DNA of 64,000 nt from a virus: the IMG/VR virus record IMGVR_UViG_3300045988_035499. One strand, 5' to 3'. Positions 4,456-34,223 of the stretch are shown here, piece after piece. The notes beneath the pieces are model-generated. The model was not told where the DNA came from, ran no database searches, and saw nothing but the letters and a program-made list of their open reading frames with translations. The position numbers and the translations under genes were made by a program. Every line of letters begins with the position of its first letter. Within the stretch, counting starts at the first letter, position 1.

Positions 4456-4466
4456 AAGTATAAAAA

Positions 4467-7234: not shown

Positions 7235-7236
7235 AC

Positions 7237-8202: not shown

Positions 8203-8258
8203 AATTTTTGTTATGTATATTTTATTTTATATTTCTTTAGGTAAGTGTAGTACCTATT

Positions 8259-8702
8259 TTATGCTGCAAACTCTATTACCTTATTTTTAAACCCAGGGTC
8301 GTAACAATCTATATGAACCCACGAAACGGCCTTTTCTAATCTAATCTTATAAGGCAATTTATCCTGATTATCTTTAATCAACTGTCTAATTTCCTCAGCA
8401 GACTTAGCATTACAAGTAAAGTCTACTCCATTTCCAGTAACATGAGCTGACATATAAGGTCCAGTCTTAGCTTTAACTAATGGACACATATTACATCTTA
8501 ATCCTCTCTGTTTGAGCTTACTAGTATTTACTATCATTGGTAGATTAATTATTTCTGTACGTAGTACTAATAAGGTATGCAATAAAGGAGTACTTAGAAA
8601 CATCCAAGCCTGTTCTTTGAACTTATCATATACATGATTACATACTAATTCTCCAATGCGAAAATACTGCTTTAATTCTTTAATTATTTGTTCTCGTTCC
8701 AT
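8259..8702 (-). CDS. peptidase M15-type cell-wall hydrolase (endolysin)
   Basis: SAHVTGNGVDF and WVHIDC fit the zinc-ligand pattern (H..D..H) of M15 D-Ala-D-Ala carboxypeptidase-like lysins. No TAG. Confidence 0.7.
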   Translation of the reverse strand: MEREQIIKELKQYFRIGELVCNHVYDKFKEQAWMFLSTPLLHTLLVLRTEIINLPMIVNTSKLKQRGLRCNMCPLVKAKTGPYMSAHVTGNGVDFTCNAKSAEEIRQLIKDNQDKLPYKIRLEKAVSWVHIDCYDPGFKNKVIEFAA

Positions 8703-8892
8703 TTCTATTTACGCCTTTATTTAATTCTACTCTATCTTGTAGCATATTACCCATTAAATCTGCAGCAAGGTTAAGACTGAACTCTTTATTATCATCGTCC
8801 ATTCTGTCTACCTTACTATAGAGCTTAAGGAGTAGAACGTAAATCTACTCCAAAAGTTCTCTATCTGTCATATGTACTAAGTATTGGTTCAT
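8680..8892 (-). CDS. hypothetical protein
   Basis: ATG 8892-8890 in a TAATG overlap with the upstream gene. One in-frame TAG. TAA 8682-8680. Confidence 0.4.
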
Positions 8893-11366: not shown

Positions 11367-11367
11367 A

Positions 11368-14300: not shown

Positions 14301-15459
14301 CACCATCGAACTTATTCTCAATCCTAGTAATCTCTGATATACGTTCTTCGATTTCTTTATTGAGTTTAGCAGTTATACTAATGTCTGCATTAGTTCTATC
14401 ATGAATTTCTAAATCTATACGATCATGTAATATATTATCTTCTCGTATACGACTTTCTTCTTCCTTATTTATATTATTCTATAGAGTATCATCAGCTTTT
14501 TCTCTATCGGCTATTTCTTTATCTATCTACTGTTGAAGTAAAGTATCTGCGTCAGTTCTATCCTAGATTTCTTTGTCGATTCTCTCATCAACCCTAGTAA
14601 TCTCGTTAGTTCTGTCTACTATCTCCTTATCAATCTTAGTATCTACTCTTTCAATTTCGCTGATACGATCCGATATCTCTTTATCGACCCTACTATCTAC
14701 TCTTGTTATTTCGTCTTTACGGTCTTGAATTTCCTTATTTAGAGCTTCTCTAAGACTTTCTAATTCATTAGGAATAGTAACATCTAACTTATACTTATCT
14801 TCTTTACTCATGATACCATCTTGATCTACAGTAGCTTTGGCTAAGAACAGATCTATATAGATGTTATCTCCACTTTTTGTAGTAGTCCATTTGATACAGG
14901 GAGTATTTGTATTAGTAAGATTAATAGCCTCTGTTACTAAATCATATACAGATGTATTAGTGTTGTCCTTAATCTTAATGTTGGTTAAAGCTAAATCACC
15001 AATATATATATACTTACCATTGTCAGTAAGTACATAATCTCCATCACCAGTAGTTTTAAGTGCTAAAGTATTGTATAAGGTTCTGTTATAGTCTAATTCT
15101 TTACTTACTGTAATACTTTCAAATTCAACAGTAGTAATATTATTAGAGCCTTCTTCCTTAACATAGTTAGGAAATTCTAACTACAATTCACCATTTACTA
15201 TAGAATGCTCTGTAGATACTAACAAACCTTTTCTGCTAGCATTAGGAGTATATATAAGTAGATTGTCTCTTATAGCGTTATATAGTCTACCGTATTCTTC
15301 TGCACTTACTTTTCCATCTGTTACTACAGGATCAAATACATATACAGACATGCCTTTGAACGATGTAATCTTTATCTTACCGTTATGTTCACCTTCCTAA
15401 AAAGGTATCATCTCATTACCAGTAAGATTTACACGTTCTTCAGCTTGACTAATTTTCAA
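11368..15459 (-). CDS. long tail fibre with a C-terminal S74-type intramolecular chaperone domain
   Basis: Five ORF fragments share frame 1, with 12 in-frame TAG. An upstream TGA at 15658 bounds the frame. No ATG lies near the conserved N-terminus, so a TTG start at 15459 is inferred ((M)KISQAEERVNLTGNEMIPF). GFWKE|SDIRLK is at about 11716. Confidence 0.65.
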
Positions 15460-15463
15460 GCCT

Positions 15464-15880
15464 TTAATTCTTGTTGGTATTATTTGGGTTTTCTACTAAA
15501 TCTTCATATCTCTAAGTTTCTAATAATAATACTCCACCATCTTCCCATAACCAAGGATCTTCATTCTCTTCTAATAAAGCAAGTATAAATGGATCGTCTA
15601 TAATACAAGTAGGCTTACCACAACCATAATCACATGATTGACAGTAAGGTAACAACTTCATAGGTCTATTACTGTACAACTAAGGATGTACTCTAGTAAT
15701 TAACCTAGCTAACATATCTGTATCAGTAGACTTAGTAGCCTACGATGTGCGACTATATTCTAACAAATCTGTCAGCTCATTGTACACAATCGTAGCTACT
15801 ATATCTCTGTTATTTCTGATAATACTATTCTTTATAATAGAATTAGTCTTATCGTTTATGTAATATTTTGGATCGTTCAT
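15464..15880 (-). CDS. small Cys-rich protein with a GGVLLLET motif
   Basis: ATG 15880-15878, TAA 15466-15464. Three TAG (15740, 15680, 15512). Contains CQSCDYGCGKPTC. Confidence 0.5.
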
Positions 15881-15881
15881 A

Positions 15882-18800
15882 TTATCCTATAGTACCATAG
15901 TTCATTAATTGATTTAAAACCCATGTATTGTGTGAAGAACCAGTATTTTTTACTCCATAACATATATATGCAGATGAATTTGTCAAATTTACAACTCCAC
16001 TAGTCCCTTCAATTGTTGTTTTTATAGAAGCGTCTCCTCTATATGTCTCTGGCATTTCTCTATGAGTTAGTCTGTCACCTGAAGTAGCCATAGTTATCCT
16101 ATGACCCATATATGATCTTGTATATACTGGAGTAACAAATAGTATAGTTTTACCATATCCTTCTGGAATATCTGGCAAATTCAGATATCCATACATTCCT
16201 TGAGAGTCTAATTGTGATACATTTTGCTCAAAAGAACTTTCGAGCGTAAGATTACCGTCACTATCCCACGTTATTCCACCATTAGCTAATGAACCACTGC
16301 CATCCTTTTTTACTTGTATGGGAGTACTAACTGAAACTTGAGTACCAGTCTCCATTATATCTAAAGACATACCTGCCTCACTAATTCCAAATCTAGTATT
16401 ACCAAGATAGGTAAGAATTCCAGCTCTAGTTAACTTAACAGAATTATTACCATTTTTTACTTCAATAGATGTATCTGCACCATTAGCTGCTAAATGTACA
16501 CCGCCAGCTCCAAAGTAAGCTTCGCCATTGGCGAAGTCTAATAAAAAGTTAGGTCTGAACTCATTAGATGTATTCATAGGATCATCTGTATTTATAAGCT
16601 GATACTAACTACTATTCTCATTACTAGCATTCTTACCTCTCTGTGAGAACATCAGATTGTTGTTGAATACAGCTCCACCAACTAAAGCATTTGGAGTAAT
16701 TAATACATTAGCAAATACAGCCTCATAATTTTCTAACTTAGCCCATGCACCAGATGTATCAGTTGCAGGAGATACATTATTCTGTTGTGTACCAATCCAT
16801 GTCATTACAGACTTAAGATAATAGAAATCACCATCACTAGTATCATATACATACGGAGCTTTTTCACCATCGTTAATATATGGAGTAGTAGTACTATAAA
16901 TACCTTGAGGATAGATAATTGGCTGTGAACCTACTGGATCTGGTACTATAATACCTCCCATAGGATTAGGTTTAGACCAAGCAGTCTCCATAGTATCATT
17001 GATGATTCTACATTGAATAAACCATATATAGTTGTATTCATCTCCATTAACTAATTCTGGTACATCTAATGACCAACCTGTAGGATTTCTCTTCCATTTC
17101 ATTGAGTCACTCCATTGTTCTCCAGTATAAGTAGTTTCAGTACCTTTGCAGTATTTTACTTCATAACCTACACCAGGAATACCAGAAGCACCAGTAGAGC
17201 CAGTCATATAATATGGATCAGCCCAATCAGTAAGTAAAGTATTATCCACACCACTAATAGTAGCAAATGTAGCCCATAAAACTGGTCCATCACTTAATAC
17301 AGGAGCAGTAGAACTCCAACCAGTTGGATACCTATCTGATTTATTTAAGCTAGGAGGAGTAGACCAACTATTGTTTCTAGCGAATCTATACTCAGTATAA
17401 TTACCATCTGCACCTTGAACAGTACCAACGTTTACCCAAGTCTCTCCATTCCATACCCACAAATAACCATCAATTACATAAGCATCTCCTATTTCATTAC
17501 CAGTCATTGGTAAATCATCGGTAGATTCTAGAGTACCTTTAATAACAATTCCTTGTCCAGTTACTTTGATAACAGCTCCCCATTCGATAACAGTTGCTGT
17601 TTCACCTTGTACTAATGCGGTAGATTTCCACCATGTTCCAGTACTCATATCAGGTACATTTACCCAACCATTACCTGGAGCATAAGGGTCACTACTAGTA
17701 GGTTTATCAGGTTTGGTAGTAGCTTGTTTAAAAGCGTCTACTTGGTAGTTAAAGTTATTACCATCTAAACCAGGTACACCTGTAATCAAATAAGGACCTT
17801 GCCATCCTCTTTCTTCCTCAGGAAGATTCTCATCTATATACAACTTATTATCGTAAGTAACTAAAGCTTGAATGCCCCATATAGCTTGTTTACCAGTAGC
17901 AGTAGGCATACCTACACCCCATATGCTACCTGGATTAATATTCAGTCTATCTGGATCTCTAGGTTTAACATCACTACCAGATGTACGAGTATACATTACT
18001 CTAATACTCATACCGTCTTGACCGTTATCTCCATATTTGGCCCATAATGCTGGAGAACTAAAATTACCCCATTTGTGAGTATTACCATCGTACTTTCTTT
18101 GACTAACCCACTCATATTGATAAGTTTGACTTACACCACTAGGATCATCTGTCCAAGGTTCTTCTCCTGGATAAGATGACGGTATATACTCATCTACATC
18201 TGGATTATTATCGGTGATATTATGAGGAGGAGCAGGTAGTTTAGTACGTTGGAATATATATTCTCTACCATCCCCGTCTTTACCATTTACTCCCCATTTA
18301 GACCAAATAGTAGGGCCTTGCCAGTCACTCCACAAACCACTATCTTCTATAGTACGGCTACATACCCATTCGCATTGATATGATTCACTTATACCTGAAG
18401 GTTGATCTGTCCATCCTTCTGGTACATAATCAGTCTGATTAGGATTGTTATCAGGCTTTTCAGGTTTAGTAAGGCTAGTTACAGTAAGTTTATAGATGAA
18501 TTCTATACTAGTACCATCCGCACCATCCTTACCATCTTCTCCAGTAAGTCTAACCGGAGTAGTCCAAGCCTATACTTGAGTCCCATTACTTGAAAAGGCT
18601 GCAGTAGACATCCATACATAACCGTTAGGATTAACATCTGTTCCAACCCAACCAGCTGGATATATTACTATATTGTTAACTGCATCCCAGCTACCTCCTA
18701 CAGGGGTATCAGGTCTAGTTGTAGTAGAAGTAGATTTATAGGCAATTACATTTCTGATAGTATCTCCATCTATTCCAGGAACTCCATCTATACCATCCTT

Positions 18801-19106
18801 ACCATCTTTACCGTCTTTACCGTCTTTACCGCTATATCCTGGGTCACCTTTAGAGCCAGCAGGAATACCAAATGTAAAAGTAAACTCATTGTCTTCTAAT
18901 GCTACACTAGCGGTAGGTACACTTGCAGTATACGCTCTATCTACTTTAGCTTTAAACTTAGAGCTATTTATAATAACATCTCCTATCTATTCTAACGGTA
19001 TCTTATAGTTTGCATCTTTCTCAGCAATAACTGCATATTCAGCACCAGTGAACGAGTTTTTGCCTTCTAGATCTAATATCTTTACGCCATCACATTTCTG
19101 TGTCAT
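15882..19106 (-). CDS. tail protein with a collagen-like GKD repeat and repeated P.GW.D.P modules
   Basis: ATG 19106-19104. Frame 0 was scanned: three TAG (18987, 18570, 16605). TAA at 15882. GYSGKDGKDGKDGKDGIDGVPGIDG is encoded at about 18790-18850. Confidence 0.7.
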
Positions 19107-19118
19107 AATTCTTTAATT

Positions 19119-19793
19119 TTAAATTCTACAACAACCATTAATACAACCACTAGAGTACAGAGTAGACGTAGTAGTAATCTTATCTTTTTCTAACTTCAAA
19201 CACTTATTTCCCTCAGTACGTAAGCATTTAGAATCTTGAGTTAGAATACAATTATTACAGCAATTCCTACTACTATTACAATTATTGCTATTACCCTAGA
19301 GTGATATCTCTAACAATCTGCATACATCGATATAAAGCAACATTGCATCTTTGAAATGACCAGATTGTATAGCATACTCCAACAACTGACGCTTAAACAC
19401 TATAAGCATTAAATTCTACATAGTCTCATCATCAAGACATGTAGAACACTTTGTATGCAGCTTTCTAATCTCTGCTGTATATATAATCTCAGGATTGTAG
19501 TATACCCCATAGAAACGAATCTCTTCGTTCTCATTATAGCATTTGAATGTAATATACTTTATATTCCAGTCTAATTCTAGTATCTCTTCATTTGTTACTA
19601 CTACTTCATTATCTTCAATAGTAATCTCCTCAGTAAAGATATAATTATGTTCTGGAATATCATCTAGTATATTCTTCAAATTGCATGCTTCATCGACATA
19701 GACCTCAACATCGTAGCCAGATAAATCTATATCTGTATCTACCTTGAAACTAAGTCTATTGCCATTTATTTGTACATTTATTAATTTGTCCAT
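19119..19793 (-). CDS. hypothetical protein with a Cys-rich C-terminus
   Basis: ATG 19793-19791 (MDKLINVQING). Two TAG (19416, 19296). TAA 19121-19119. Confidence 0.5.
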
Positions 19794-19804
19794 ATATAAA
19801 CAAT

Positions 19805-19840
19805 AAAAAAAGTGAAGAGTGGAATATTCCACACTCCACT
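19805..19840 (-). terminator. intrinsic terminator-like hairpin
   Basis: 15-bp stem (agtgaagagtggaat / attccacactccact, one mismatch) followed on the minus strand by a T6 run. Lies directly after gene 19898..20872. Confidence 0.55.
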
Positions 19841-19897
19841 TTTATAATTTGTAAAAGGAATACTGTATTTTACTAAGTGTTAATCCCTCTATGTATA

Positions 19898-20872
19898 TTA
19901 AGCTATTTCTTTGCCAGCAATAAATGACTGAATACCTTTATCTACAATAGAACCAACTAAACTAGGACAATAAACTTCTGCAGTTAACGGAGTAGTCTTG
20001 ATATACTGATTATCATTGCTCAGATACAAGTTATCGTTTTCAATGATAGCGTAATCATATTCTGCATCTTCAACTACTTTACGATCCTGTTCTACGATAG
20101 GATAAGCGCCTGTAAATACATGACCTTTATAACCCATATAAGTTACTTCTGCATCACGTACTTGCTTCCAGTAACCCTTACCAGGAGTACCGTTAGTCTT
20201 AGTGATAACAGCACCTGCAACAGCTGTAGGCTGATTAGCTAACAGAGCACCTGGAATAGTTTCATACAAAGAAGCTTCCATAGAAACTACTGAGTACTGA
20301 TTCAAAGAATATACTCCTTCGTTATCATCCTTAACCATAGCAGTCAAAGTAATTACACCAGCAGCGTTGGTAGCCTGTACTCTGCGATTCTTGTGAGCAT
20401 TAATTTTCTTAACAATTGCTTCTGTCAAGTCATTTGCTACATTGGTATTAGCATATACTTCATAACTGTGAGTGAATTGACCCGGAGCTTCATACATATC
20501 TTTGTAGACGATACGCAGAACGTAACGGTTACCTGCAACAATAGTAGCAGCACTTAAGTCAATAGTAATTTTTTCCTGAACAGGAGCAACATATTCGCCA
20601 ATTACTGCAGACGGTTTAGAAGCTTTCTGAATCTCTGTAGAGAAGTCAACATTAGCTTTCTGAGCTACTGTACCATCGGGCATAGTAACATTGATTTTCG
20701 GACCTGCAACACCTACATACAAAGAAGTAGCTTCTGCAGCATCAGCAGCTGTTTTAATAATGCTCTTATTTTCGTCAAACAAAGCTACGTCACCGTTAGC
20801 CAAAGCATCTACCGTAGTATAAGAAGCAGGACATTGTTTACCGATTAATACGGTATGTACTGAAGTTATCAT
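19898..20872 (-). CDS. virion structural protein (capsid auxiliary/decoration candidate)
   Basis: Intact 324-aa ORF that is TAG-free and looks GC-richer by eye. It has its own downstream terminator hairpin and sits inside the head gene block. The specific role is inferred from context only. Confidence 0.45.
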   Translation of the reverse strand: MITSVHTVLIGKQCPASYTTVDALANGDVALFDENKSIIKTAADAAEATSLYVGVAGPKINVTMPDGTVAQKANVDFSTEIQKASKPSAVIGEYVAPVQEKITIDLSAATIVAGNRYVLRIVYKDMYEAPGQFTHSYEVYANTNVANDLTEAIVKKINAHKNRRVQATNAAGVITLTAMVKDDNEGVYSLNQYSVVSMEASLYETIPGALLANQPTAVAGAVITKTNGTPGKGYWKQVRDAEVTYMGYKGHVFTGAYPIVEQDRKVVEDAEYDYAIIENDNLYLSNDNQYIKTTPLTAEVYCPSLVGSIVDKGIQSFIAGKEIA

Positions 20873-20982
20873 ATAATTTTATTAATTTTTAGTTATTAGA
20901 CAATTTGCGCACGTCTAACTATTCGTTCTTCTACTTTCACCTATAGTGATTTCCACGTCAAACGAACGCTTTATTATTCTTT

Positions 20983-21639
20983 CTAAGTTTCCTTAGATTT
21001 ACTACCAGCTATATTAGTTACTAACAACTGTACTGCTAGATCTACTATATCCTGGTGAGTATTTTCTGGCAAATCTGTATACTCTTTAGTAAGATCTTCA
21101 AATTTGCCTAAATCTTTTGCTTTTCTCAAGTAAGTCAACTCGTAACTATTGATACCATATTTACCATCTGTGTACAATATGATAGTATTATCTTGATACA
21201 GTCTTAATGGTCTTGCTTGATTATAGCGCAATCTATGATCTGATAAGCTATTATTTAACTGAGAACTAATATTCTCTATAGTAGCTTCTAATACATCAGA
21301 TTCATGTACAATTAAATTATTGCACTTATTATCTTTTATAGATATGTAAACATTTTCTCCTAATGCGAATACATAGTCATCAGGGTAATCTGTTTCCCAT
21401 TTCTTACCTGATACTCTAAAGTTACCAGCATTATAAGTCTAAGTCTTTACTAGAGTTCTAATGTTATCACTTAGTTCTTGATTAGCTTGAAATATACGAA
21501 ATAACTATTTAGTATATTCATCTTTAGCTTTATTCAGATAATGAAATAAAGTATCTGAAGGATACTTAATAGTTTTATCATAGCTAGGTATGATACTATC
21601 AAGCTATCTTTCCATATTAATTTGAAATTGTCTCTCAGT
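20983..21639 (-). CDS. head-tail joining module protein (hypothetical)
   Basis: ATG 21639-21637. Three TAG (21604, 21505, 21439). TAA at 20983. Confidence 0.45.
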
Positions 21640-21644
21640 CATAA

Positions 21645-22358
21645 TTATTCAGATACTTGGTTTAATTGTAACTTAGTAGTTGTTCTTTGAGATTCTATAT
21701 TCTCTAAAGCTATTACTACAGCTCTATTGATAATCTCATTCATAACATCTTCTGGGAAGTCTAATTCTTCTTCTGGCTCTGTATAGTTGAACTTCTTAGG
21801 TTTCTTTATATACGTAATATCTACTCTGTAATACTTACCATCTTCGTCAGTTCTAGGACCATACATAGGATCTAATGACATAATAGGATCAACATATACT
21901 AAGAAGTTATTATCTTCAAGTACAGCAATTGGGTTTTCTACCCAAGGTATATTATTATAAGTCTACTTGTATAGCCCAGCTACTGCATGAGTAGTTATGC
22001 TACAATTAGCTTCTAAGTCACCATATTTAAGTACTGCACTAAGTATAGTCATTCTGTGATTATCTTCTCCGTGTATCTCATCTATGACATATTCGTTGTT
22101 ATTAGTGTTCCACGCTTGGAGATTTTCATCAGTAGCTATAAGCCTATTAATCTCAGATATATTGGATATGCTGCCCTCTAGATCTACTCTAAGAGCATTA
22201 TTACCCGTAGTCTTATTACTTAATATCTCCAGTTGAGCTTGATTAAGGAATAAGTCTATTTCTTCAGGTAAAAATGCAGGGCATCCACCAAAGGCGATAC
22301 CCTCCGCATTCTTATCTAAAATTACTTTAAAGTATATATGAGAATCCTTATTATTCAT
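21645..22358 (-). CDS. head-tail connector/adaptor candidate
   Basis: ORFs 21963..22358 and 21645..21881 are in frame, joined through a TAG at 21963. Position lies between the capsid and tail genes. Confidence 0.45.
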
Positions 22359-23110
22359 TACTTAGACTTAATTTCATTAAGTATTGCTAACTTAATATCT
22401 TGATTCTTTTTATCTTTTAAATATGTAATTACATCCTCTAAACCATTACCAATTAAGTCAGTTCCAAAATAGTACTGAGCTCTATTCTTTCTAATAATGT
22501 TTTTAGCAACAGCTTCTTCAATTACATAGTTAATTTCTTTGTTTGGATTTTCAACCCATTTCATCATAAAGGTCTTAGGAGAGCTTTCGATCTGTTCAGT
22601 TAATTTGGCTTCTACAAGTTCATTAGACATAGTATCAGATTTAATACCATACAGTCTAAGACACTTACGCATTTCTTCGATAGACATCTTATCCATCTCT
22701 CTATATGCTTCACGCTTAATCTTATTGATCTTATTAGCTTCTTCTGCTTCACTATCTTTGTTAATTATAACATAATCAGTAGCTGCTGTAATCTTATTTA
22801 AACCATTTGCTACTCTTTTATGATTCTTGAGGAATATGTATTTGAGTTCATCTTCTGGTCTATCTGTATCTAAAATAACATCCTTCTTACCAATCTTAAT
22901 GGCAAAAGTGTCCCAAAATGAACTACTAGGGGATAACTACCCTGGTTGATAACCAATTTCTTTTTCTAATCTTTCTGCATCTGCAGCAGTCAAGCCAGTA
23001 TACAGATTACCAGATCTCGTCCAGTATGAGCTTACATAATCATAACATGTAGGCCATTTTGTAATCCCAGTCCAGGGATTAGATTTAATTATTCTAACGA
23101 TTACTTCCAT
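22358..23110 (-). CDS. hypothetical virion-module protein
   Basis: ATG 23110-23108. One TAG (22937). Stop at 22358 overlaps the next ATG. Confidence 0.5.
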
Positions 23111-23150
23111 AATATTTAATTAGATTGTTCAGTTAGTTATTGTTTTCTAA

Positions 23151-23184
23151 TCATAGTAGTATGCTTTTTAACATACTACTATGA
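23151..23184 (-). terminator. 13-bp perfect hairpin downstream of the capsid gene
   Basis: tcatagtagtatg-ctttttaa-catactactatga. No clean U tract, so its function is uncertain. Confidence 0.35.
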
Positions 23185-23222
23185 CAGAATATTTTAGTTA
23201 AGGTTCCTCAATCGCGGCGAAA

Positions 23223-24692
23223 TTATTCTGCTTCCATGATCAATTCTCCGCAGGCTCTGGGGTCGCGGAGCATAATACCCATCTCACCCAAGAAGAATAC
23301 AGTGTAGCCGTCCTTACCGTTAGATCTCAGAGTATTCTTAGAGTTAGCATAACCAGACGGAGCAACGGCACCACCAGTATACCAAGTAACGAATTCACGA
23401 TCTTTACGAACTACCTTAACGATGTTAGCTTCACCATCACGTCTACCCAGATCCAGGAATGTCATACGATATGATTCCAACGGTTTCAGAGTAACAGGGT
23501 GCAACTGACGATTGTATACGATATCGTCATACAACGGGAAATACTTCAGAGTAAGTTCAATACCATTTGTCATTGAGTAAGTCTTGAACTGACCACCGAA
23601 CTTCAAGTTATCACCAGAACCAGTTACAAATACAGTATCCGTCAAGTTCATGTTAACAACTTTTTCCTTCAACAGTCTGTCGAATTCTCTCATACCCATT
23701 TCACCAGTCAAAGCAACAAACTTACGTTCATTAGTACCAAGTACATTGTAAGACAGGTCAAACAAGAAGTCTTCCAACAGTTCTGCAGTAAGACGAGTAT
23801 AGTAACGTCTGTTAGACGGAGCAATTTGTTCAAGCAAACCAGCACCGATAAATACCGGACGACCGTTAGTACCCTTCAAATTACAAGATCCATCTTTGTT
23901 TACATTGTTTTTCATGTAAACTAACATACGTTCACATCTCTTATACCATTCACGTAATGCAACCCATTCCTGATAATCAGCCCACAGATAGGAAGTCTTT
24001 CCAGTCTTAGGATCTTTCAGGGCAATTGCCATTACTGTAGAATAAGCTGAACCAGTGATATCATAGTTGATACGAATTGTCGTAAGATAATTACGCATCT
24101 TAAAATGAGTATTATAGTTCAGGATATCACCTTCTTCACTGTATTCTTCAACAGCAGAAGCAAGACGTGATACTTGACAACCCGGTTTCAGATATTCAGA
24201 AGGAATATAAGAACTCGGCTGGCCATCGGCTACGAAGCAAGTATATACCCAAAGATTACCATCTTGGTACGGAGCACCTGAAACACGTACTTGGAAGTCT
24301 TTATTATCGAATTCAAGTACTGCAGTAGGACCGAACCAGTTATCTTCCAACCACAACAGGATAGGAGTATTGTTCAAACCAGCAGTAGAAGTTTCAGTAA
24401 TAGCTGCGCCATTCCATTTTGCATCTCTGATTGTAACAGCTCTATCTGCATCAATCATTACTTTCCACTCCCAACTCGGCTGATCAATGGTCATTACATT
24501 ACCAAGACCACCAGTCAACATATCCAAAGAAGTGTTGTAACCATTATCCTTAGTTCCAAATACATAAGATAACACGGTAGCAACCTGATATGGATTCTAT
24601 TGTGAAGCCTCCGAAATTTTGGCAGTATCAATCAAATCACTAAACCATTTTCCTTTGTACAGTACTAAGTTATTTAGAATATTATTATCCAT
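23223..24692 (-). CDS. major capsid protein (HK97-fold type, crAss-like)
   Basis: 489 codons. ATG 24692-24690 (MDNNILNNLVLYKGKW). One TAG at 24597. The size, the position after a scaffold-like gene and the sequence character fit crAss-like major capsid proteins. Confidence 0.7.
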
Positions 24693-24728
24693 AAAATACT
24701 AGTAATTTTAAATTTAATTTGTTAAATA

Positions 24729-25883
24729 TTAATTTGCACGCAATTGACGTACAATAGAATTCCACATAGACTCGTTGCTAGTGTTATCCTGTTTTCTAGT
24801 TTTTCTACTTACTCCAGTTCTATTGAGACTATCTTTAAATTTGCTTATAGCCTTATTGGAGCCTTCAGTCTTTGCAGCTTTAAGCAAAGTATCTCCCTTC
24901 ATAGTAAAGTATGCAGATTCTAGTAAATTTTTCACGCTCTTAGACCAATCTTTTTGATATTGGGTCATTCCATCAGCAGTAGGTTTGAATATGTATTCCA
25001 ATAGCGTCTTCTTATCCTTCTCAGGAATCTTTACACCACGAATGTTATCCAACCCTTTTATTTCGTTGACAACGGAGTTAAAATAGTCCTGTTGTTTCTT
25101 TCTATTCAGCTCAGCAGTCTTTTTCTGCTCTTCCAATAGCTGTTGTTTCTTTTCTTCTCTAATCTCCTTCAATGATTCGAGAGCGTCTACAGCCTCATCT
25201 TCAAGCAATCCGGCTTCTTCATATTTAGTAAGTTTCTTCTCAATGGACTTACTACTAAAGCCTTTTTCTTTCAGAAATTCTTTAAGTACTAATTTCTGAT
25301 TTACTTCATCATCTTCGATGTTAATATCGTCAATATTTAGTTCTCCGTCAATCTGGAAATAATCTTTAAGATTACCGCCATTCTTTACAAATTCATCCAA
25401 CTGTGCTACTTCTTCGCTAGCATACTGTGGAACTGAATTCTCTTCTATTACATTTTGGAAGTAGTCGATTAGATCTTCTACAGTTTTAGGTTTTTCTTCA
25501 TCTTCTATATCTTCCCAACCTAATTTTTCAGATAATGAATCAAAGAATCCAGAAACGACAGTTGTCTCATTTTCATTTATTTCTTCAGTATCTTCATCTT
25601 CGTTCTCTGTCTCTTCTTCAGTATCTTCTATCTCTTCCTTCTTAGACTTCTTATTAGTCTTAGCAGGCTTTACATCTTCCTCTTCTTCATCTTCCTCAGA
25701 ATCCTCTGTATTGCTCCTCTTACCTTGTTTACGAATTTCTTCTAACTCTTCATCAGTAAGTTCTTCTACAATAGCATCATCTTCTGTTTCTGTTTCAGGC
25801 TTTTCTATAATTGTCGTTTTTGTCATTGCACCTGGCGCGAAGTCTTCAAATACTTCAAAGCCGTTTAATGTAGTCTTATCCAT
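24729..25883 (-). CDS. scaffolding-like protein (highly acidic, coiled-coil)
   Basis: 384 aa with a long Glu/Asp tract and Lys/Glu helices. Lies immediately upstream of the capsid gene. TAG-free. Confidence 0.5.
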   Translation of the reverse strand: MDKTTLNGFEVFEDFAPGAMTKTTIIEKPETETEDDAIVEELTDEELEEIRKQGKRSNTEDSEEDEEEEDVKPAKTNKKSKKEEIEDTEEETENEDEDTEEINENETTVVSGFFDSLSEKLGWEDIEDEEKPKTVEDLIDYFQNVIEENSVPQYASEEVAQLDEFVKNGGNLKDYFQIDGELNIDDINIEDDEVNQKLVLKEFLKEKGFSSKSIEKKLTKYEEAGLLEDEAVDALESLKEIREEKKQQLLEEQKKTAELNRKKQQDYFNSVVNEIKGLDNIRGVKIPEKDKKTLLEYIFKPTADGMTQYQKDWSKSVKNLLESAYFTMKGDTLLKAAKTEGSNKAISKFKDSLNRTGVSRKTRKQDNTSNESMWNSIVRQLRAN

Positions 25884-25900
25884 AATTAGTATTAATTAGA

Positions 25901-26137
25901 TTATTTGTTTTTCTTTCTTCCACCCTTTTTCCATTTTTTAGCATTTTGAGCAAATATAGCCCTCTTTCTAGTCAAAGGATTTTTACTGTGTGTAAGTTCT
26001 TCAGTTGTTTTACCTGTTCTTTTCTTTAAGGCGTTGAACTTGCCTCTATTCTTTTTCTTTATATGTATACCACCATCCTTGTAAGATGGTACAGGGTATT
26101 CTGGTATAATGCCAGCATAGTCTATTAGATCACTCAT
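25901..26137 (-). CDS. small highly basic protein
   Basis: ATG 26137-26135 overlaps the TGA of the upstream gene. Lys/Arg-rich C-terminus. Confidence 0.45.
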   Translation of the reverse strand: MSDLIDYAGIIPEYPVPSYKDGGIHIKKKNRGKFNALKKRTGKTTEELTHSKNPLTRKRAIFAQNAKKWKKGGRKKNK

Positions 26138-27386
26138 TGTTATTAAAGTATTGATTAACACCCATAGCTCCTACGCCAAGTAAAGGCACAGTATTGAACC
26201 ATTTTGTATACTGTTTAAGATTCTTAAACTACTTACTAGCCTTAGATACTCCTCGTAAAGATGAAATATCAGATACTTTCTATAATACTTCTTTTAGTTC
26301 CTATTCACTGACTTTCTATCCTCTATTGTTAATTAACCCATTCTGAAACATATATTCTCTTAATTGATTCATATGAGATTTCTGTTCACTAGGTTTAAGA
26401 TAATATCCTTTTGAATCTATAGGTTTGCTAGAAAAGTCTTTGCTCATCTAATAGAACATATTGCTATCACCTTCAGCACTTGGTCTATTTTTATTACGAA
26501 GAAAATCTACATAATGACCATATTCATGTTCTGTTAAAAATTCGTCCAAATTGGTCATATTTGGATCTATTCTATAACTGTAAGTACCATTAGCATTTCT
26601 CATTGAACCAGATGTTCCATTACCTAAATCCATTAACTACACTTTAGGTAATTTTGTAGGGTCTACATTATAACTATCAATAATATCAGCGTATGGAGTA
26701 ATATAATCATCACCAAATGCTTTCTTTACTTCCTTAGCTCTAATCATATAATTAGGATCATCCATCAATCTTTCTGCTATATTATAACTTTGATTAACAG
26801 CCTTTGTACGTTTTGCAAGCTACACGTTATCATAATTAATAGCTTCATCTATTCTGTTTTGTACATAGTTAGGTCTTACTGTCATATCAAAGTTATAATT
26901 ACTAACTTTAGTTTTTGGAGTTACACCTTTGTACTTTTTTCTAAAGTTCTTAACTGTAGTAGGTACAAAGGGTATCATAGTAAGTGCAGCTAATCCTGCA
27001 CCAAGCCAGTCATCATTCTTTATTGCCTAATAAGTATCATTTATAGCAATAACATCACCAATAGGAGTAAAATTCGCAACATCTTCTAAATTTGTTATAG
27101 GTTTAAGTCCTCTGACCATAGGTCTATTATCGAACTTACTTATTTCATCCGTAGAGTTATTAATATAGTCATAATACTACTCTTCAGTATATTTCTGACC
27201 ATATTTATCAGTATACAATTTGCCTTTATAAGGAATACGTTCAATAGGTTCAGGTCTGTTAGTAGGTGGCACTTCGCCACCATCAGCAAATGCTGATACT
27301 TTCCAATCTAAATAGGTCTTACCAGGATTTGACTCCCGGTAAGCCTTTAGATTCTGCATTCTTTGTTTAAATGCTTTCTTATCCAT
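26130..27386 (-). CDS. virion-module protein with an HExxH motif (HEYGH)
   Basis: ORFs 27177..27386 and 26448..26633 share frame 0. Nine TAG (27177, 27027, 26820, 26637, 26448, 26316, 26301, 26280, 26229). TGA at 26130. Confidence 0.55.
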
Positions 27387-27465
27387 AACTTTTCAATTAT
27401 TTCTTTCCACCTTTGCCCTTCTTAGAGCCAGATTTCTTTCCTCCGCATGCCATAATTATTTCTCC

Positions 27466-27930
27466 TTATAATGTTTTAATATATTCTAAAAAACCTTTCT
27501 TACCATACTTTTTGTATGTTTTCTTTCTATTTTTGATTTTATATTTGTTAAGATTTTCAGGCTTACGAGTTTTTAGATAGTCTAAATTCTCAGCATTAGC
27601 ATAAGCCTCCATTTCATAACAAATAGTATAATAAGCTCCTGAAGCTGGATGTATTATTGGATTTCCTTTTAACCATTGTATTAAGTAAGACCAATAGTAC
27701 TTCAACCAAGAACCTTTATCTTTAGCCTAGTATAAGTGAATAGTCTCATGATTCCAAGTAGTAGGAGTTATAAGACTTTCATCTTTTCTAGATAATAGAT
27801 ACCCACACCAACTCATTGCAGAATACCCACTAGCTGGGTAATGTTCCATATGTTTATACTAAACTTTATCTGCCTTTACTTTAGTGAATAACTATTTAAT
27901 AATCCACCATGTTTCTTTAAACCAATTCAT
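27466..27930 (-). CDS. small protein with an HExxH motif (HETIH)
   Basis: ATG 27930-27928. Three TAG (27892, 27859, 27727). TAA at 27466. Confidence 0.5.
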
Positions 27931-27931
27931 A

Positions 27932-30436
27932 TTACTTCTCTCCTACCGTTTTATTCTTCAGTGCCGTGCGTGCTTTCAACCTTTCACGTTCCAAAGCTGC
28001 GTTATCTTTTTGTTTTTGTAGCTACTTCTAAGCTTCTAACTTTTGCTTTTCTAATTCAATTTTCTTATCTTCGATCTCTTTCTTCATCTTTTGTTCACGA
28101 ATTTTAGTATTGAATTCAAACTGTTTAGAGGCTTCATCAGATGCTTGTTTTCTTTCAGCTAAGGCTTGATTTGCTATCTCTATAGGATCGGGTATTCCAT
28201 TATTATCCTAGTCCATATCCTCTACACCCCTATAAGCATTGAGTTGAGCTACAGTGATCTTAGTAGCATTATCAGAATCTATCTTATACTTCTCAAGATC
28301 CATCTCAGCTTCCTTAATCATAAGTTCTTCTTCCTTAACTTCATTCTGCATTTGGATCATTTGCTGTTCACGTTGAGCTTGAGCTTCTTCTATAGCTTGT
28401 TGCTGTTCCATACGTTTCTACTCTATTTCTTCAAGTTTACCCTTGATCATAGTAACATTATCCATAGTAATAATCTCAGCAATATCAAGTAAGCTAGCTC
28501 CATTTTGCATAGCAGGCTGCATAAGATTTCTAAGGGCTTCTATCTGTTGTTGATTTTTAGTAGTGTCTTCTACAAATATATCATAGTCCTCATAGAAGAA
28601 ATTTTCAGATAAAGTAATGAAAGCTCTAGTAGCATCATCTAGTATGTAATGTAATTCTGTCTTATTATCTTTCCATACATACTTAGCTGTGTTGAGCAAC
28701 ATTGTGATAGCTTCCTTCTTCACTTGGTTATGCACCCAAAACCAAGGTTCAGTGATATGAGCAGACTGTACTACAGATCTTTCTACATTACCTACTAATT
28801 CATTAGATGCTATAGCTCCCTCACGCTGTTTACTTACTCCAGATATTTCAGACAGCATACTTTCAATCTTATCCATCAAATTGATGTATTGATCAATAGT
28901 ATTAGCCATAGAAAGGTCTAATGCAGTAATCTAGTTGAACTATGATGGTTTACCACCTTCTCTACCAGGTATGTCCCAACCCTCTTCATATGGGTTGATA
29001 AAGTTAACGCCAAGAGCAGATAAATAGTGCATCCATTTAGATACATCTATGTTCATAGACTTAGGTATCTGAGTAATATCCATATTTACTACTTTACCTT
29101 TATCTCTAGACATAGCTAACTCCAATCTATACCAAAGTACTATGTACATATACTGTAAAGGTTTCATCATACTAACTAGACTTCTAGGTCTACTATTAGT
29201 ATTATTATATATTACTCCAGTATATGGTAATCTTTGAGCATTAGGATTATCTGCAGATACATACTGATAGTCTACAGGCTATATTCCTACATAACCGTCT
29301 TCACCGTATCTATACCCTTCCCATACTTCAATTATCCATTTCCACTCTACATTCAACTCCATACCAGTTTCTTTATAAGTTTCATCAACTTCATATTCTT
29401 CTGGCATACCAGTTTCAGGATCAATTACAGTTACAAATCCAATCTTCTTAAATGACTTCCAACAACAATGCCACAATCTAATATTGTCTGAACCGTCAAA
29501 TGGATTAGAAGTGAATCCGTTTATGTTATGTAATTTGATATGAGCATAGTCTAATGATGTCTTTCTAAGTTCTGGATTTATACCTCCTTTGGCACCATCT
29601 TCCATTAGCTCCAGGAGCTCATTTAACTACTTCTCAGACATTTTATCATACAACCTGTCATATATCTCAGTTGCAGACATAATCATCTCATAACAGCACC
29701 ATTGTGCCTCGTGAATAAACTCTATATCTGATGTTTCAGTGTCATAATCAAAGTATAAAGGATTGATGCGTTGCATACATGGTTGTCCATTTAATACTCC
29801 TACATAGTATATCTCTTCTCCACCTATCAAAGCGTCTTTCCACCCTTTAAAGAATTCATGAGTAATATTAAGTTTATTCTTTAAATAATTAAGACTATGA
29901 TATGCTGTTATCTCTGCTATATCCTTATAGTCTTTACTCATGTATTTCTATATCTATTCTGGAGTCATAATCTCTCCAGACTCTAAAGCTTGCTGATATC
30001 TTTGCTATTCTTCAGGCCCTAGCTTACTCATAATAGTAGCCTGAATATAGTCTATTAACATCTATTTAGCTTTATCTTGCATCTCACTAGTAGCAATATC
30101 ACTAGTACGTGTAACTCGGAAGTTAAATGGCCTTTTAGTTTCCTCTCCTAATAGTAAGTCTATCTTTGGCTTGATTATATTATAATCCTAAGCCATAGCT
30201 GGGAATCCATCCTACTATTTAAAAGGATTTGTAACATACTTTAGATCTTTCTCATTATATATACTATTGTAAAGATCATAGTAAGTCTACATTTCTTCCT
30301 TACGTGTCCTAGTATTGCCATTTCTAGATCCTCCCTAACTGTGTCCTATAATATAGTCTACACAGGCTTCCTACCAAGCTTTTGTCTTCTTAGACATAGG
30401 AAGTTTCTATATCGGAAACTGATTGATATTATTCAT
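27932..30436 (-). CDS. portal protein
   Basis: Five ORF fragments (29627.., 29279.., 28940.., 28418.., 28208..) share frame 2. ATG 30436-30434, TAA 27934-27932. 19 in-frame TAG. About 834 aa, immediately downstream of TerL. Confidence 0.75.
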
Positions 30437-30438
30437 AA

Positions 30439-32490
30439 TTAAAACATATATGCTTCTATATTATTATCGATTTCATCGTCATGAAACCAATCTTGAGTAA
30501 AAATAGGACCGTCAAACAATACTCGATTCCTATTTTCGTTCTTTTTCTCTTTTACTTTAACATTATATAGCTGTTCTCTATATATCATTACCTGCATCAA
30601 CGCCATGACTCTATCGAAGTTTGCTGTATCATTATAACTGATAAGCTCTTCTAATAGCGGCTCTGATAGTATGTTGTGTAGGTTCTTCTTACCTGGTGAT
30701 TGTTCTTCGTTAAGCCAGTCTTTAATTAAGCCTTCTCCCCATTGCTTAATCTATTTGTTCATGTGACAACCTTTCTTTCTTTGAACTTTGGAGTTTCCAA
30801 CAACATCGGAAATAATATCGGGTTGATCAGCCAACAAATAGTCACAATGCTTAGCAGTAAAGTAAGGAAAAAGACCTTTTCGTTCGTTTTCATACATGAT
30901 ACGCCCGTTATAGTACACAGCTAATTTGCGAAGATTTTCATAGTACTCTTCAGCTGTCTAAGGCCTTCCTGTATATTCTGCAACAATAATATCGTAGTAG
31001 TTTTCAAAATTCTAAAATCTCTTATAAACAAATGTAGAACCTAACGAATTAGTACCCGATTGATCGTGGTCATAAGGGTCTACTCCTAATATATATAATC
31101 CTATAGGAGCATCCTTCATAGGGTGTTCCCATATCACTATAGCACCAGTTGGATCATCATCCTTCTTTAAAGGATAATGTGTTACATCTCCATGTTTCTT
31201 AATAACCCACTTAAGTGTACCATCTGGCTCCCACACTAGATCTCCAACCTATTTTACATTACTAAGACTCTTATTAGTACGTATTTTAGCTAACTGTTCT
31301 TGTAGTTCTTTCTTAGGGAATATATTACCGCCAAACTCCAAACATGCTTCCTATGGGGTTATACAGTGTTCTGCTACATATCTATCTACTGCTACAGAGT
31401 TAGTAGCATTTTCTACTACTTTTCTACGTTCAGATAATATGTACTCTACAGACTTCTTATACAGAGTATTACCATCTTTATCCATGTAGATTCTGTTGCC
31501 ATTCTCATCACGGAAGTCCATATTAGTATACTGTGGTATAAAGAATCCACATTGCTTATCTGATGGAGTTTCGTCCCATATATTATCAAATCCTAGACAG
31601 TTATAACCATCTGGATTATAGAACATATCTTTAAGAGTCTCAAAGTGGCTATCTTCATCTCCGCCAGTACCAAAAGCAATCATTGTACCAAATGCTACAC
31701 CGTCTTGTTCTACAGAAGGTCTAGCAATCTGCCATGCAGCACCTAGTTCAGAAAATGAACCAGCCTCTTCAAATATAATAAGTTTACCGGCTTTACCACG
31801 TACTACGTCAGGATTATCTTTTAGAGTAACACCAATAATCTCTGATTTGAAACCTAATTCCACCTCATTACCATATTCATCTTTAGTAAAGAAACCTGCA
31901 CGTTTACGCATCGAAGTATTAACAGATCTTTTCTTACCCCACGCAGTATTCTTATCTATAAAGTCCATATAATCCCAAGCTTTAGTAAGAATACCATCCT
32001 CTGTCAGGTATTGCTTATTGCTTGCGTATATATATGTCTTGCTACCAGGAAATAAGTAATAGTTACGGCATGCCATTGCTGCATTCTTGTATGAATAACC
32101 TTTACGTCTACTCTTTAATGCGCATAAATGTTTACCTAAACCTTCTGCATCTTCTACTGCTAGAAAGAAGTAATAGTCATAATCGTAAAAGTCAGGGAAC
32201 TGCAATTCACGAGTTTTCTTTACTTTAGTAGTTCCATCTAGGTTAGTTATAGTCGTATATATAATTCGTTGTATAGGACAGAAATTTAAATAAAAATAGT
32301 TATACCCACTAATGAAATCACCATCATCAGCAGTATAACCATACTTACATCTATCTCTCTACTCATCCCAGTATTTGAAGTACTCCGATGTACCTTGAGG
32401 ATACTAACAATAAGAACCAGACGCTAAATACTATAGTGCTGGTCCCCTAAATTTATCGGACTATTTAATTTTTTTAGTAAAGTCGACCAT
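30439..32490 (-). CDS. terminase large subunit
   Basis: Frame 1 runs continuously from ATG 32490 to TAA 30439 with nine TAG. Has an ATPase Walker B-like LIIFEEAGSF, a nuclease-domain GVDPYDHD, and C-terminal NFDRVMALMQVMIY. Confidence 0.8.
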
Positions 32491-32707
32491 GTTTTTCTAT
32501 ATTTATATTCCAATTATATTTCTTACTATCTATAGTACATTCATTCGGCGGTAATAAAAGACTATCTAAAGGAAAATTAATCTCGCTATTTTCTGCATGA
32601 ATTACTTCAAGGCTACTTTCCAAAATAAGCATGATAGTAGTATCCTTTAAATTAGGATATAATTCTTTTAGATATTTATAAAATTCTATTTTCTTTTGGT
32701 CTTCCAT
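32474..32707 (-). CDS. hypothetical 77-aa protein
   Basis: Intact ORF that starts right after the structured RNA and overlaps the TerL start by 17 nt. No recognisable motif. Confidence 0.35.
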   Translation of the reverse strand: MEDQKKIEFYKYLKELYPNLKDTTIMLILESSLEVIHAENSEINFPLDSLLLPPNECTIDSKKYNWNINIEKHGRLY

Positions 32708-33142: not shown

Positions 33143-33182
33143 TGGTAGCCCCACTACGACTCGAACGCAGACTAAGAGGGTT

Positions 33183-34180
33183 CATTTACTCGACTATTGC
33201 ATCCAATCCTAAGATCAGTCTTCTCGTTTAGTCTGTCACGCTGCTTTCGCTTGCGCCTCGTCAACATTTCTGTCTTCCGAGTCAATTAGAGAAGATTCTA
33301 ATAGTGGATTATTTATTATCCCACTACCATCCAATATAGTCCAATAACTATTTAACCAAAAATTATCTTTATTGTAACTTATAGTTCTAGTGCAAGTTTT
33401 TATTCTTTTAGTCTTAACTTCACCTTTATCTATAAGGGCTTTGGCCGCTTCTACTAAACTTCCATATCGAGCTATTTCTTTATGGTTGTTATCGTATCGT
33501 ATTACATATCTTTGGTTTGAATGTTTTTGACCGGTCTCATTTACTATAGCAGTTACAACTTTGCGTCTAATACCTAGAATACTAGATACTTGTTTAACAT
33601 TTCTAACTCTGTCATAAGTATCAGATACTAACTTTCTTAATTCGTCAGTTATCTCATATTTAGATTCGTTTCTTTGTTGATTTCTACTACCATAAGTAGT
33701 GGTCTGACTATGACAATTAGGACAAAGAAATCTTAAATTTTCAAGTCTATTATCATTATTTATACCATTTATATGATCTACTTCTAAGCTTAATGTTTTA
33801 TCATTCCACTTATTTATCCCACATATGGCACATTTATAAGGTAATAGATTATTCTTTATTATACTTCTTCTAAGTACGGATCTTGTATGTTTACAATTTT
33901 CTCTAAATAGTACATCTGGAGATATCTCTTTGTCTTTATTAGATTTTAAGTAAGCATTCTTTCCTTTGAAATTAGAACTATCTAAGTTCAAGTCTGCCAT
34001 CCTTCGTTTGATTTGAGAATAGCCCCAAGAATTTCCGTTTGTTGTATATCCTAATTTAAATAATACTTCTGCAATATTTGTACTGTTGCATATTAATTCT
34101 ACAAACTGTTCGTCTGTACATTCGTATATTTTGTTTATCATAGCTTTATTTTTAACATTCAATTAATCATCGAACTTCTA
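33183..34180 (-). mobile_element. 998-nt intervening sequence in the tRNA anticodon loop (intron candidate with a homing-endonuclease ORF)
   Basis: U precedes the 5' break and G is the last nucleotide before exon 2, matching the group I splice-site rule. Almost all of it is the HNH ORF. A GAAA-capped hairpin (GCGCAAGCGAAAGCAGCGT) lies near the 3' end. Confidence 0.55.
33236..34141 (-). CDS. HNH homing endonuclease
   Basis: EVDHINGINNDNRLENLRFLCPNCHSQ is an HNH motif, flanked by CxxC pairs and a C-terminal helix-turn-helix-like region. ATG at 34141; the track's TTG start is at 34162. TGA at 33236. Confidence 0.8.
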   Translation of the reverse strand: MINKIYECTDEQFVELICNSTNIAEVLFKLGYTTNGNSWGYSQIKRRMADLNLDSSNFKGKNAYLKSNKDKEISPDVLFRENCKHTRSVLRRSIIKNNLLPYKCAICGINKWNDKTLSLEVDHINGINNDNRLENLRFLCPNCHSQTTTYGSRNQQRNESKYEITDELRKLVSDTYDRVRNVKQVSSILGIRRKVVTAIVNETGQKHSNQRYVIRYDNNHKEIARYGSLVEAAKALIDKGEVKTKRIKTCTRTISYNKDNFWLNSYWTILDGSGIINNPLLESSLIDSEDRNVDEAQAKAA

Positions 34181-34223
34181 AGAGCCTCCTGTGCTAACCA
34201 TTACACCATAGGGCAATATTAAG

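Follow-up and report, generated by a model that had tools for sequence, protein, structure and literature searches.

How can a gut phage read TAG as an amino acid when its only detectable tRNA gene with the matching anticodon is interrupted within that anticodon? This question is raised by a minus-strand locus in IMG/VR record IMGVR_UViG_3300045988_035499, a 64,000-nt stretch of viral DNA that was analysed whole (hereafter the window) and that blastn against GenBank phages assigns to the crAss-like phages (Crassvirales, Suoliviridae); the phage is Loutivirinae-like. The gene in question, tRNA-Gln(CUA), is found close upstream of the terminase gene and heads a late block in which TAG is used as a sense codon. 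The answer that we consider very probable is that a mobile group I intron splits the suppressor tRNA-Gln(CUA) of this TAG-to-Gln phage and that splicing restores the tRNA, the intron being a selfish element and not an evolved regulator. Coordinates of all features are collected in Table 1.

We started with the two halves of the tRNA gene. Read along the minus strand, exon 1 (TGCCCTATGGTGTAATGGTTAGCACAGGAGGCTCT, 34215-34181) and exon 2 (AACCCTCTTAGTCTGCGTTCGAGTCGTAGTGGGGCTACCA, 33182-33143) are spaced 998 nt apart, and joined they make a 75-mer that ARAGORN folds into a canonical cloverleaf, tRNA(cta), with the anticodon CUA. A preliminary description of this DNA had assembled the same cloverleaf from these two minus-strand segments, had placed a 998-nt element in its anticodon loop and had suggested running a tRNA finder on the joined 75-mer; its coordinates and sequences proved exact. 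Two uninterrupted tRNA-Gln genes annotated in crAss-like phages match the joined exons, that of cr53_1 at 75/75 positions and that of cr60_1 at 74/75. Against the Rfam tRNA model the cr53_1 allele, which has the same sequence as the joined exons, scores 51.6 bits (E=1.7e-10). Around the insertion point the intron-less allele reads GGAGGCTCT^AACCCTCT. The register CUCU|AAC is the sole junction that gives back the intron-less alleles, and it is also the sole one with a U preceding the 5' break and a G as the final intron base, which is the group I rule that the preliminary description had invoked for a unique junction. The insertion point thereby falls between anticodon nucleotides 35 and 36 (U35 / A36).

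Closely related phages carry the same gene intact. In five contigs whose portal protein is 97% identical to the window's, the exact 75-nt joined tRNA stands uninterrupted; their flanks match the window at 92-98% identity as far as the tRNA borders, and the 998-nt intron has no aligning segment in any of the five loci. Because the intron-less sister tRNAs are identical and their flanks match up to the tRNA borders, the split is confirmed as a clean 998-nt insertion. The exact 1073-nt exon-intron-exon unit recurs with 0-1 mismatch in 8/8 independently assembled contigs examined, and an identical HNH protein is encoded on at least 23 contigs; the arrangement is neither an assembly artefact nor a matter of chance. 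Neither ARAGORN with default settings nor the Rfam tRNA model detected the split gene in the window. ARAGORN in intron mode returned a tRNA-Lys(CUU) with the intron forced to position 38/39, a solution that the intron-less alleles contradict.

Next, we asked what TAG encodes and whether the phage has another tRNA to read it. With TAG read as sense, the late block resolves into long frames, 18/18 of which end in TAA or TGA, and TAG makes up 28% of the Gln codons in the block. The preliminary description had counted 107 in-frame UAGs; the recoding was borne out, while the count here is 105. No TAG occurs in the small open reading frames (ORFs) just upstream of the tRNA, and the plus-strand early genes have two in their 3,400 codons. 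A codon-level portal alignment of the window with six Suoliviridae portals was examined at every column with TAG in any member, and CAA or CAG accounted for 109/258 aligned sense codons (42%) against a Gln background of 6.3%. Because homologues carry CAA/CAG at TAG positions, TAG can be taken to encode Gln, an identity that had been suggested from the D arm and for which the alignment gives better ground. For crAss-like phages in general, code 15 is described as backed by metaproteomics (PMC9523058).

The 64-kb window yielded no other CUA tRNA, and hence no uninterrupted copy of the kind that the preliminary description had proposed to look for. In cr56_1, the complete GenBank genome most closely related, the sole tRNA gene is an uninterrupted tRNA(CUA) at the same locus, and the complete, TAG-recoded genome PV686213 contains no intact tRNA(CUA), only an intron-split one. 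With no second CUA tRNA in the window and a single one in each of these two genomes, the earlier proposal of a splicing-dependent late translation is upheld to the extent that it could be checked: reading of the ~105 late-gene UAGs would require the spliced form of this tRNA.

To characterize the insert itself, we searched its sequence for a catalytic core. Its last ~150 nt contain R- and S-like blocks, ACAGACUAAA and GAUGCAAUAGUC, which are the counterparts of the Rfam Intron_gpI consensus blocks AGACUAAA...GAUAUAGUC. On an alignment of 28 distinct copies, beginning at the proposed guide sequence and running as far as exon 2, we scored a hand-drawn structure of 40 pairs in 7 helices, comprising P2, P3, P4, P5, P6/6a, P7 (in a pseudoknot with P3) and P8. 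Standard pairs filled 99.1% of the 1120 cells and both-side changes were present in 22/40 pairs. Shuffles as good as the observed alignment numbered 0/500, and pairing fell to 35-46% when the partners were slid by 1-3 columns. P7 contains C33235, the bulged A33234 and G33233, which pairs with C33192; this G-C pair is invariant in 28/28 homologues and, lying beside the bulged A, is presumably the guanosine-binding position, by analogy with Tetrahymena P7. The 5' exon ends in ...CUCU in the window and in every homologue with exon 1 recovered. A second copy of the core was not found within the 64-kb window. On its sequence and covariation, the insert would be classed as a group I intron; the U at -1 and the terminal G agree with the group I rule that the preliminary description had seen it obey, and the core is supported by covariation.

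On the 5' side of the ribozyme, we propose UUGGA, directly 5' of P2, as guide sequence. Its GGA (33332-33330) can pair with U33 C34 U35, with a G.U pair at the splice site, to give a P1 of 3 bp only, for which the invariant exons bar covariation; its UU can pair with A36 A37 as a 2-bp P10. Members of the wider family that lack an ORF have a classical local P1, in which an exon end ...CCCU or ...GCCU, a 9-nt loop and a complementary GGGG.. or GGGCAC guide follow one another (read by eye: L102 ACCCCU|/GGGGGU; L074 and L093 GUGCCU|/GGGCAC; L007 GUCCCU|/GGGGAC; L120 AUCCCU|/GGGGAU; L116 8 bp). In these relatives, which show P1 through P9, the guide covaries with the exon and sits directly 5' of P2 or J2/3, and the P2 loops are homologous (AUAAUACAUAAU there, AUAAUAAAUAAU in the window). 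Since UUGGA lies beside P2, where the ORF-less relatives have their guide, the HNH ORF would occupy the P1 loop. The G that would make the wobble occupies the third position of a Leu codon, written TTG in 33/33 ORFs (AAG in one ORF); elsewhere in those ORFs TTG has a 14% share of Leu codons. The leader that separates the 5' splice site from the ORF, 40 nt long in the window and only 13-15 nt in some homologues, contained no G-rich complement in any homologue. Among group I introns of tRNA genes, a short P1/P10 offset by exon pairing in the anticodon stem has been described (Zaug et al. 1993, via PMC3984707).

Two other guides were considered and rejected. GGGGCU at 34027-34022 could form 6 bp with the exon, which is near the chance rate in 1 kb, and it lies inside coding sequence. 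UUAGA at 33301-33297 complements the ligated loop UCUAA; relatives that reside in unrelated exons also conserve (U/G)AGAA, which assigns it to J2/3.

The ORF within the insert matches Pfam PF01844 at 26.0 bits (cutoff 21.4; residues 104-147) and PHROG family phrog_10822 (E=2e-45), and a DH..N..N..CPNCH motif is visible in its translation; a search by sequence gave no relatives of the protein in the PDB. None of its 9 Gln codons is TAG (0/9), leaving it readable in the standard code. The preliminary description had correctly recognized an HNH endonuclease here. It had also called the insert 'almost entirely' ORF, which needs correction: the last ~150 nt are the ribozyme core, overlapped by the ORF's 3' end, with the last ~30 codons running over the guide sequence and P2-P6.

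Several points weigh against a splicing group I intron. Splicing is deduced from sequence and not from RNA, and the survey covers 64 kb of a ~100-kb genome. The P1 proposed for the window is just 3 bp, in an anticodon loop that is one and the same in every host. The Rfam model Intron_gpI (RF00028) gave no match in the window at its gathering score, none at E<=10 on 1.6 kb or on the 171-nt core, and none at the gathering score on 17 related loci. Its sole match among the relatives, in L122, reached 23.8 bits (gathering score 50) and falls on a second, different intron. Because the model is nearly blind to the relatives as well, we discounted the miss as a negative test and treated it as insensitivity to the window's intron family, not as a sign of wrong assignment; the 850-nt ORF in L1 also breaks the model match. 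Lastly, the introns of a sister clade (that of PV686213 and others) have A in place of the final G yet persist, from which it follows that the splicing chemistry of this intron family is incompletely understood.

The terminal-A sub-clade consists of L003 (PV686213.1 65192-66242), L019, L088, L157, L158, L160, L161, L170 and L175, together with 6 metagenome contigs. Its introns end in ...GUCGGUUUAACA|AAC, with A as the last base and no G within 7 nt of exon 2, and have the same G-binding pair in P7 as other members. One of them sits in the only tRNA(CUA) gene of the complete, TAG-recoded PV686213. Such introns may be able to splice in the absence of a terminal G; the alternative is that UAG is decoded another way in those phages.

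The missing Rfam group I matches would also suit a different account of the insert, as a free-standing HNH gene or other mobile element without group I catalysis, the tRNA halves acting in trans or being joined by protein; in cr56_1, moreover, free-standing homing endonuclease genes do adjoin tRNA(CUA). We find this hardly credible, given that the ~150 nt past the guide form P2-P8 with a P3/P7 pseudoknot and strong covariation, that the family has ORF-less members complete from P1 through P9, and that the U at -1 and the terminal G are conserved.

Even a genuine group I intron could be a dead one. The split gene would then be a relic, and UAG would be decoded by some other phage or host tRNA, outside the window or of odd form, such as the tRNA-like gene at 34327-34224. 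We regard this as highly improbable. What speaks for it is that ~36 kb of the genome lie outside our view, that the neighbouring tRNA-like gene has CCCUAAA, which contains CUA, in its apical loop, and that the sister clade lacks the terminal G. The window's copy, however, has 40/40 core pairs, the terminal G and the HNH ORF all intact; the homologues show compensatory changes, and 8 independent isolates differ by 0-1 mismatch. The complete genomes of cr56_1 and PV686213 offer no other CUA tRNA. As for the tRNA-like gene, it was unseen with Rfam near the tRNA(CUA) of cr53_1 and was undetected as a tRNA by ARAGORN in cr56_1, and its anticodon arm is ~15 nt too long to decode. Nor do the hosts help, as hosts of such recoded phages use the standard code (PMC10136315).

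This tRNA-like gene (34224-34327, minus strand, 104 nt) lies directly upstream of the split tRNA and scores 34 bits with the Rfam tRNA model. Its acceptor and T stems covary among 12 variants, and its D arm is one that we take to resemble that of bacterial tRNA-Leu. The anticodon region has ~30 extra nt, with a GACGG/UCGUC hairpin closed by a 13-nt loop, AAGCGCCCUAAAG, and the hairpin is invariant in 31 IMG/VR contigs. The gene is also present, unannotated, in cr60_1. A decoy, an odd intron or a non-decoding tRNA mimic are possibilities.

To see how widely the intron occurs, we ran pattern scans, which recovered the same family in ~35 IMG/VR contigs, ~60 metagenome contigs and 3 contigs of metagenome-assembled genomes (MAGs). 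Where both exons were recovered, the site was always CUCU|AA(C/A/G) of a tRNA(CUA). Introns of different phages are 70-87% identical to the window's, the tRNA exons are 59-100% identical, and the 300-nt flanks reach only 56-70% identity, which we take to be no better than unrelated sequence. The hosts include varied tRNA(CUA) scaffolds, some with non-canonical T loops. Even in L180, the nearest intron-bearing IMG/VR relative, the tRNA is identical and the intron only 87% identical. Conversely, among the 31 IMG/VR contigs that carry the window's upstream tRNA-like gene, 14 have a complete intron-less tRNA(CUA) and two more have an uninterrupted junction on a cut or N-interrupted stretch; the remaining 15/31 show no exon 1 beside the tRNA-like gene, and none has the intron at that position. 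Genomes that are otherwise collinear differ at this one site in having or lacking the intron. Because it is more conserved than its surroundings and patchily distributed, it is best read as a mobile selfish element, one that would spread among the suppressor genes of co-infecting phages. A bacterial origin found no support: 185,579 species genomes gave 3 matches, all on MAG contigs, of which the two reaching past the intron show the same tRNA context and the third ends inside the intron.

Some of the host loci are unusual in themselves. L025, L055, L159, L162, L166, L167, L171, L179 (exon 2, for example, AACCCCGGAGGAGTGGGGGCAGCACCTACATGGGTAAC), L038 and L172 have no canonical GTTCGAAT T loop (having, for example, GGCAGCA) or have long, odd 3' halves, and ARAGORN recognizes none of these tRNA(CUA) scaffolds, intron mode included. 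A further split tRNA, read as Ile-UAU and holding a 512-nt insert, is predicted by ARAGORN in intron mode for the related phage contigs L035 (110-695) and L056 (4442-5027), where it would precede the split tRNA(CUA) by ~250 nt. The metagenome contig L217 (ERZ1034687 NODE-1529; positions 1-40), whose core is identical to the window's, starts inside the intron near P4, as would be expected if intron-plus and intron-minus genomes co-occurred in the sample and broke the assembly graph. The tRNA(CUA) neighbourhood of sister phages is a hotspot of other selfish elements as well: a free-standing homing endonuclease lies between tRNA(CUA) and terL in cr56_1 (NC_055890.1 91305-92105), an intein with LAGLIDADG interrupts TerL in L196 (665-3739), and a GIY-YIG gene adjoins the capsid gene in L193 (14614-15219) and L194 (14865-15470).

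From these elements we propose the following course of events. The pre-tRNA would fold so that the anticodon stem keeps the two exons together, and UUGGA would pair with U33 C34 U35 as P1, with the G.U at the splice site, and with A36 A37 as P10. The P3-P8 core would then bind guanosine and perform two transesterifications, ending at the terminal G33183, whereby the 75-nt tRNA with its encoded CCA would be released to decode the late-gene UAGs as glutamine. The HNH enzyme, for its part, presumably acts on co-infecting phages, nicking or cutting their intron-less tRNA(CUA) alleles, into which the intron would be copied (homing).

Does the phage profit from such an arrangement? The preliminary description had proposed that splicing is a built-in timing or commitment switch for the late programme. 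The intron would on that account be an evolved regulatory gate, its splicing, perhaps in competition with translation of the HNH ORF, delaying or conditioning the switch to code 15 and so timing the late genes. Placement gives the idea some appeal, as the tRNA heads the recoded block and the ORFs just upstream have no TAG. The ORF also overlaps the ribozyme core, so that ribosomes and folding should compete, and a precedent exists in the theta ribozymes coupled to suppressor tRNAs in recoded gut phages (PMC10879173). We nevertheless hold an evolved gate to be decidedly unlikely. Sister phages with flanks 92-98% identical and the same recoded genes have the identical tRNA without the intron, and because these intron-less sisters have the same recoding, the intron is dispensable for the late programme; this is where the proposed switch fails. 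Patchy distribution together with conservation above that of the hosts is a selfish-element signature, and the ORF ends before P2 in L004, L021 and L079, so the overlap is not conserved. The related claim that ribozyme splicing gates the code switch, with mature tRNA(CUA) and the terminase, portal, capsid, tail and lysis proteins appearing only after splicing, is likewise unlikely; such a gate could be tunable by GTP/Mg levels or by ribosomes crossing the ribozyme core via the HNH ORF. The selfish intron that we favour is best read as tolerated because it splices.

Comparison with known systems places the element between two groups of introns. It resembles bacterial and plastid tRNA introns, such as those of cyanobacterial tRNA-Leu(UAA), tRNA-fMet with I-Ssp6803I, Azoarcus tRNA-Ile(CAU) and Agrobacterium tRNA-Arg(CCU), in being a group I intron of the anticodon loop that follows a U; the short P1 of those introns, the holding of their exons by the anticodon stem and splicing itself have counterparts in the window that are predicted from sequence. 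For the Anabaena intron, pairing of the exons within the anticodon stem is cited as a requirement (reference B103 in PMC3984707), and the tRNA-fMet intron is cited for a homing endonuclease that has the anticodon region as its target (reference B105 in PMC3984707). Unlike all of these, the window's intron resides in a phage genome and in a stop-codon suppressor needed by a recoded block. It is inserted between nucleotides 35 and 36, it would have an HNH enzyme in the P1 loop in place of a PD-(D/E)XK enzyme, and its core belongs to a phage family (UAAUUGACU..GGCGCAAGC..CAGCGUGA.AGACUAAA..GAUGCNAUAGUC) barely detected by Rfam RF00028.

With phage protein-gene introns (T4 td/nrdB/sunY, SPO1 I-HmuI, Bastille I-BasI, Pf-WMP3 I-PfoP3I and the MCP, PolB and primase introns of Delta-group crAss-like phages) the element shares the pairing of a mobile ribozyme with a homing endonuclease and presence or absence among close relatives. 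Those introns all lie in protein-coding genes, whereas the host gene here is a tRNA. Suoliviridae (the Delta group) are intron-rich (PMC7886860), and a 2014 review stated that every phage intron then observed was in a protein-coding gene, despite the many phage tRNA genes (PMC3984707). Theta (HDV-like) ribozymes at suppressor tRNAs (Kienbeck et al. 2024, PMC10879173) are alike in physically tying a ribozyme to the way a suppressor tRNA matures, in TAG-recoded phages with Bacteroidota hosts, and have been proposed as part of the code switch (PMC10879173). They are, however, small self-cleavers that trim the tRNA 3' end, while the window's is a large splicing ribozyme, by prediction, that interrupts the anticodon and carries a mobility gene, in a tRNA that encodes its own CCA. 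We looked just 3' of the tRNA for a theta/HDV-like ribozyme or other structured element, and the fold was no better than shuffles (z=0.1). The code-15 crAss-like phages cr53_1, cr60_1 and cr56_1 share the locus upstream of terL, a tRNA there that is identical or nearly so, and TAG=Gln late genes, and differ in that their tRNA-Gln(CUA) has no intron.

The element would combine the group I mechanism of bacterial tRNA introns with the HNH-intron lifestyle of phages, and what differs is the host gene, a phage suppressor tRNA. Our literature searches turned up no report of an intron in such a tRNA, though papers beyond that search may exist. The host gene is the single tRNA that implements the alternative code, so that a late programme with 105 UAGs in the window would hang on one splicing event and the selfish element sits in a target that the phage cannot afford to lose. 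Reviews put the share of recoded crAss-like genomes in which a suppressor can be detected at only ~35-40% (PMC10136315, PMC7886860), and a 2023 Crassvirales review asks what the remaining recoded genomes use (PMC10136315). Because default tRNA finders miss them, split suppressors may explain some of these cases: they could be a hidden class behind part of the ~60% of recoded crAss-like genomes reported without a suppressor, for some of which the ~100 contigs with intron-split suppressors provide a concrete, checkable explanation. The family is at the same time a natural set of ribozymes with one fixed 7-nt loop as target, including a sub-clade apparently without the otherwise universal terminal G.

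Table 1. Features of the split tRNA-Gln(CUA) locus and the late-gene block, in window coordinates.
Feature	Position	Strand	Remarks
tRNA-Gln(CUA) exon 1	34181..34215	-	Acceptor 5' strand, D arm, anticodon stem 5' strand, loop C32 U33 C34 U35; equals the 5' 35 nt of intron-less alleles
tRNA-Gln(CUA) exon 2	33143..33182	-	A36 A37 C38, anticodon stem 3' strand, variable loop, T arm, acceptor 3' strand, A73, encoded CCA
Predicted group I intron, 998 nt	33183..34180	-	Clean insertion; core covariation; ORF-less relatives with classical P1
Small hairpin UUCGAU/AUUGAA in intron leader (5' splice site to ORF)	34158..34174	-	In most homologues
HNH ORF (putative homing endonuclease), 301 aa	33236..34141	-	ATG 34141, TGA 33238-33236; no in-frame TAG
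Proposed internal guide sequence UUGGA	33330..33334	-	Candidate; position as in ORF-less relatives; invariant G
P2 hairpin, conserved loop AUAAUAAAUAA	33301..33327	-	8 pairs, 6 with compensatory changes
P3 5' strand UCUUCUC	33289..33295	-	7 pairs, 6 compensatory, 100% paired
P4-P5-P4' (CUCG ... CGAG around P5 hairpin)	33257..33281	-	Covariation scoring
P6/P6a hairpin (GCGC..GC GAAA GC..GCGU)	33238..33256	-	Covariation scoring
P7 5' strand CAGACUA	33229..33235	-	Bulged A33234, G33233 of the G-binding pair; motif AGACUAAA fits Rfam Intron_gpI consensus
P3 3' strand GAGAAGA, making P3/P7 pseudoknot	33219..33225	-	Covariation scoring
P8 hairpin (CUGAUC UUAG GAUUGG)	33203..33218	-	3/6 pairs compensatory
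J8/7 (AUGCAA) and P7 3' strand (UAGUCG)	33191..33202	-	GAUGCAAUAGUC similar to Rfam consensus GAAGAUAUAGUC
Terminal guanosine (omega G)	33183..33183	-	G in 19/28 aligned homologues, 50/60 metagenome copies
Late-gene block (terminase, portal, capsid, tail genes)	1075..32502	-	105 in-frame TAG codons

Other RNA elements were noted in the window and its relatives. Two further tRNA-like genes on the plus strand, at 48529-48600 and 58142-58213, have irregular anticodon arms with 6-nt loops and are reported by ARAGORN as '???'. The second scores 45 bits with the Rfam tRNA model and reads C-UAG-UAA-UAG-U in its anticodon region; an ARAGORN tmRNA call at 48162-48578, overlapping the first, is probably spurious. 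The plus-strand (early) region also contains three Hatchet self-cleaving ribozymes (42941-43052, 43151-43271 and 45184-45304; 85-96 bits) and a RAGATH-9 RNA (46571-46740; 134 bits), all plus-strand and clustered within 4 kb. A RAGATH-14 RNA adjoins the tRNAs in the related contig L079 (8391-8597).

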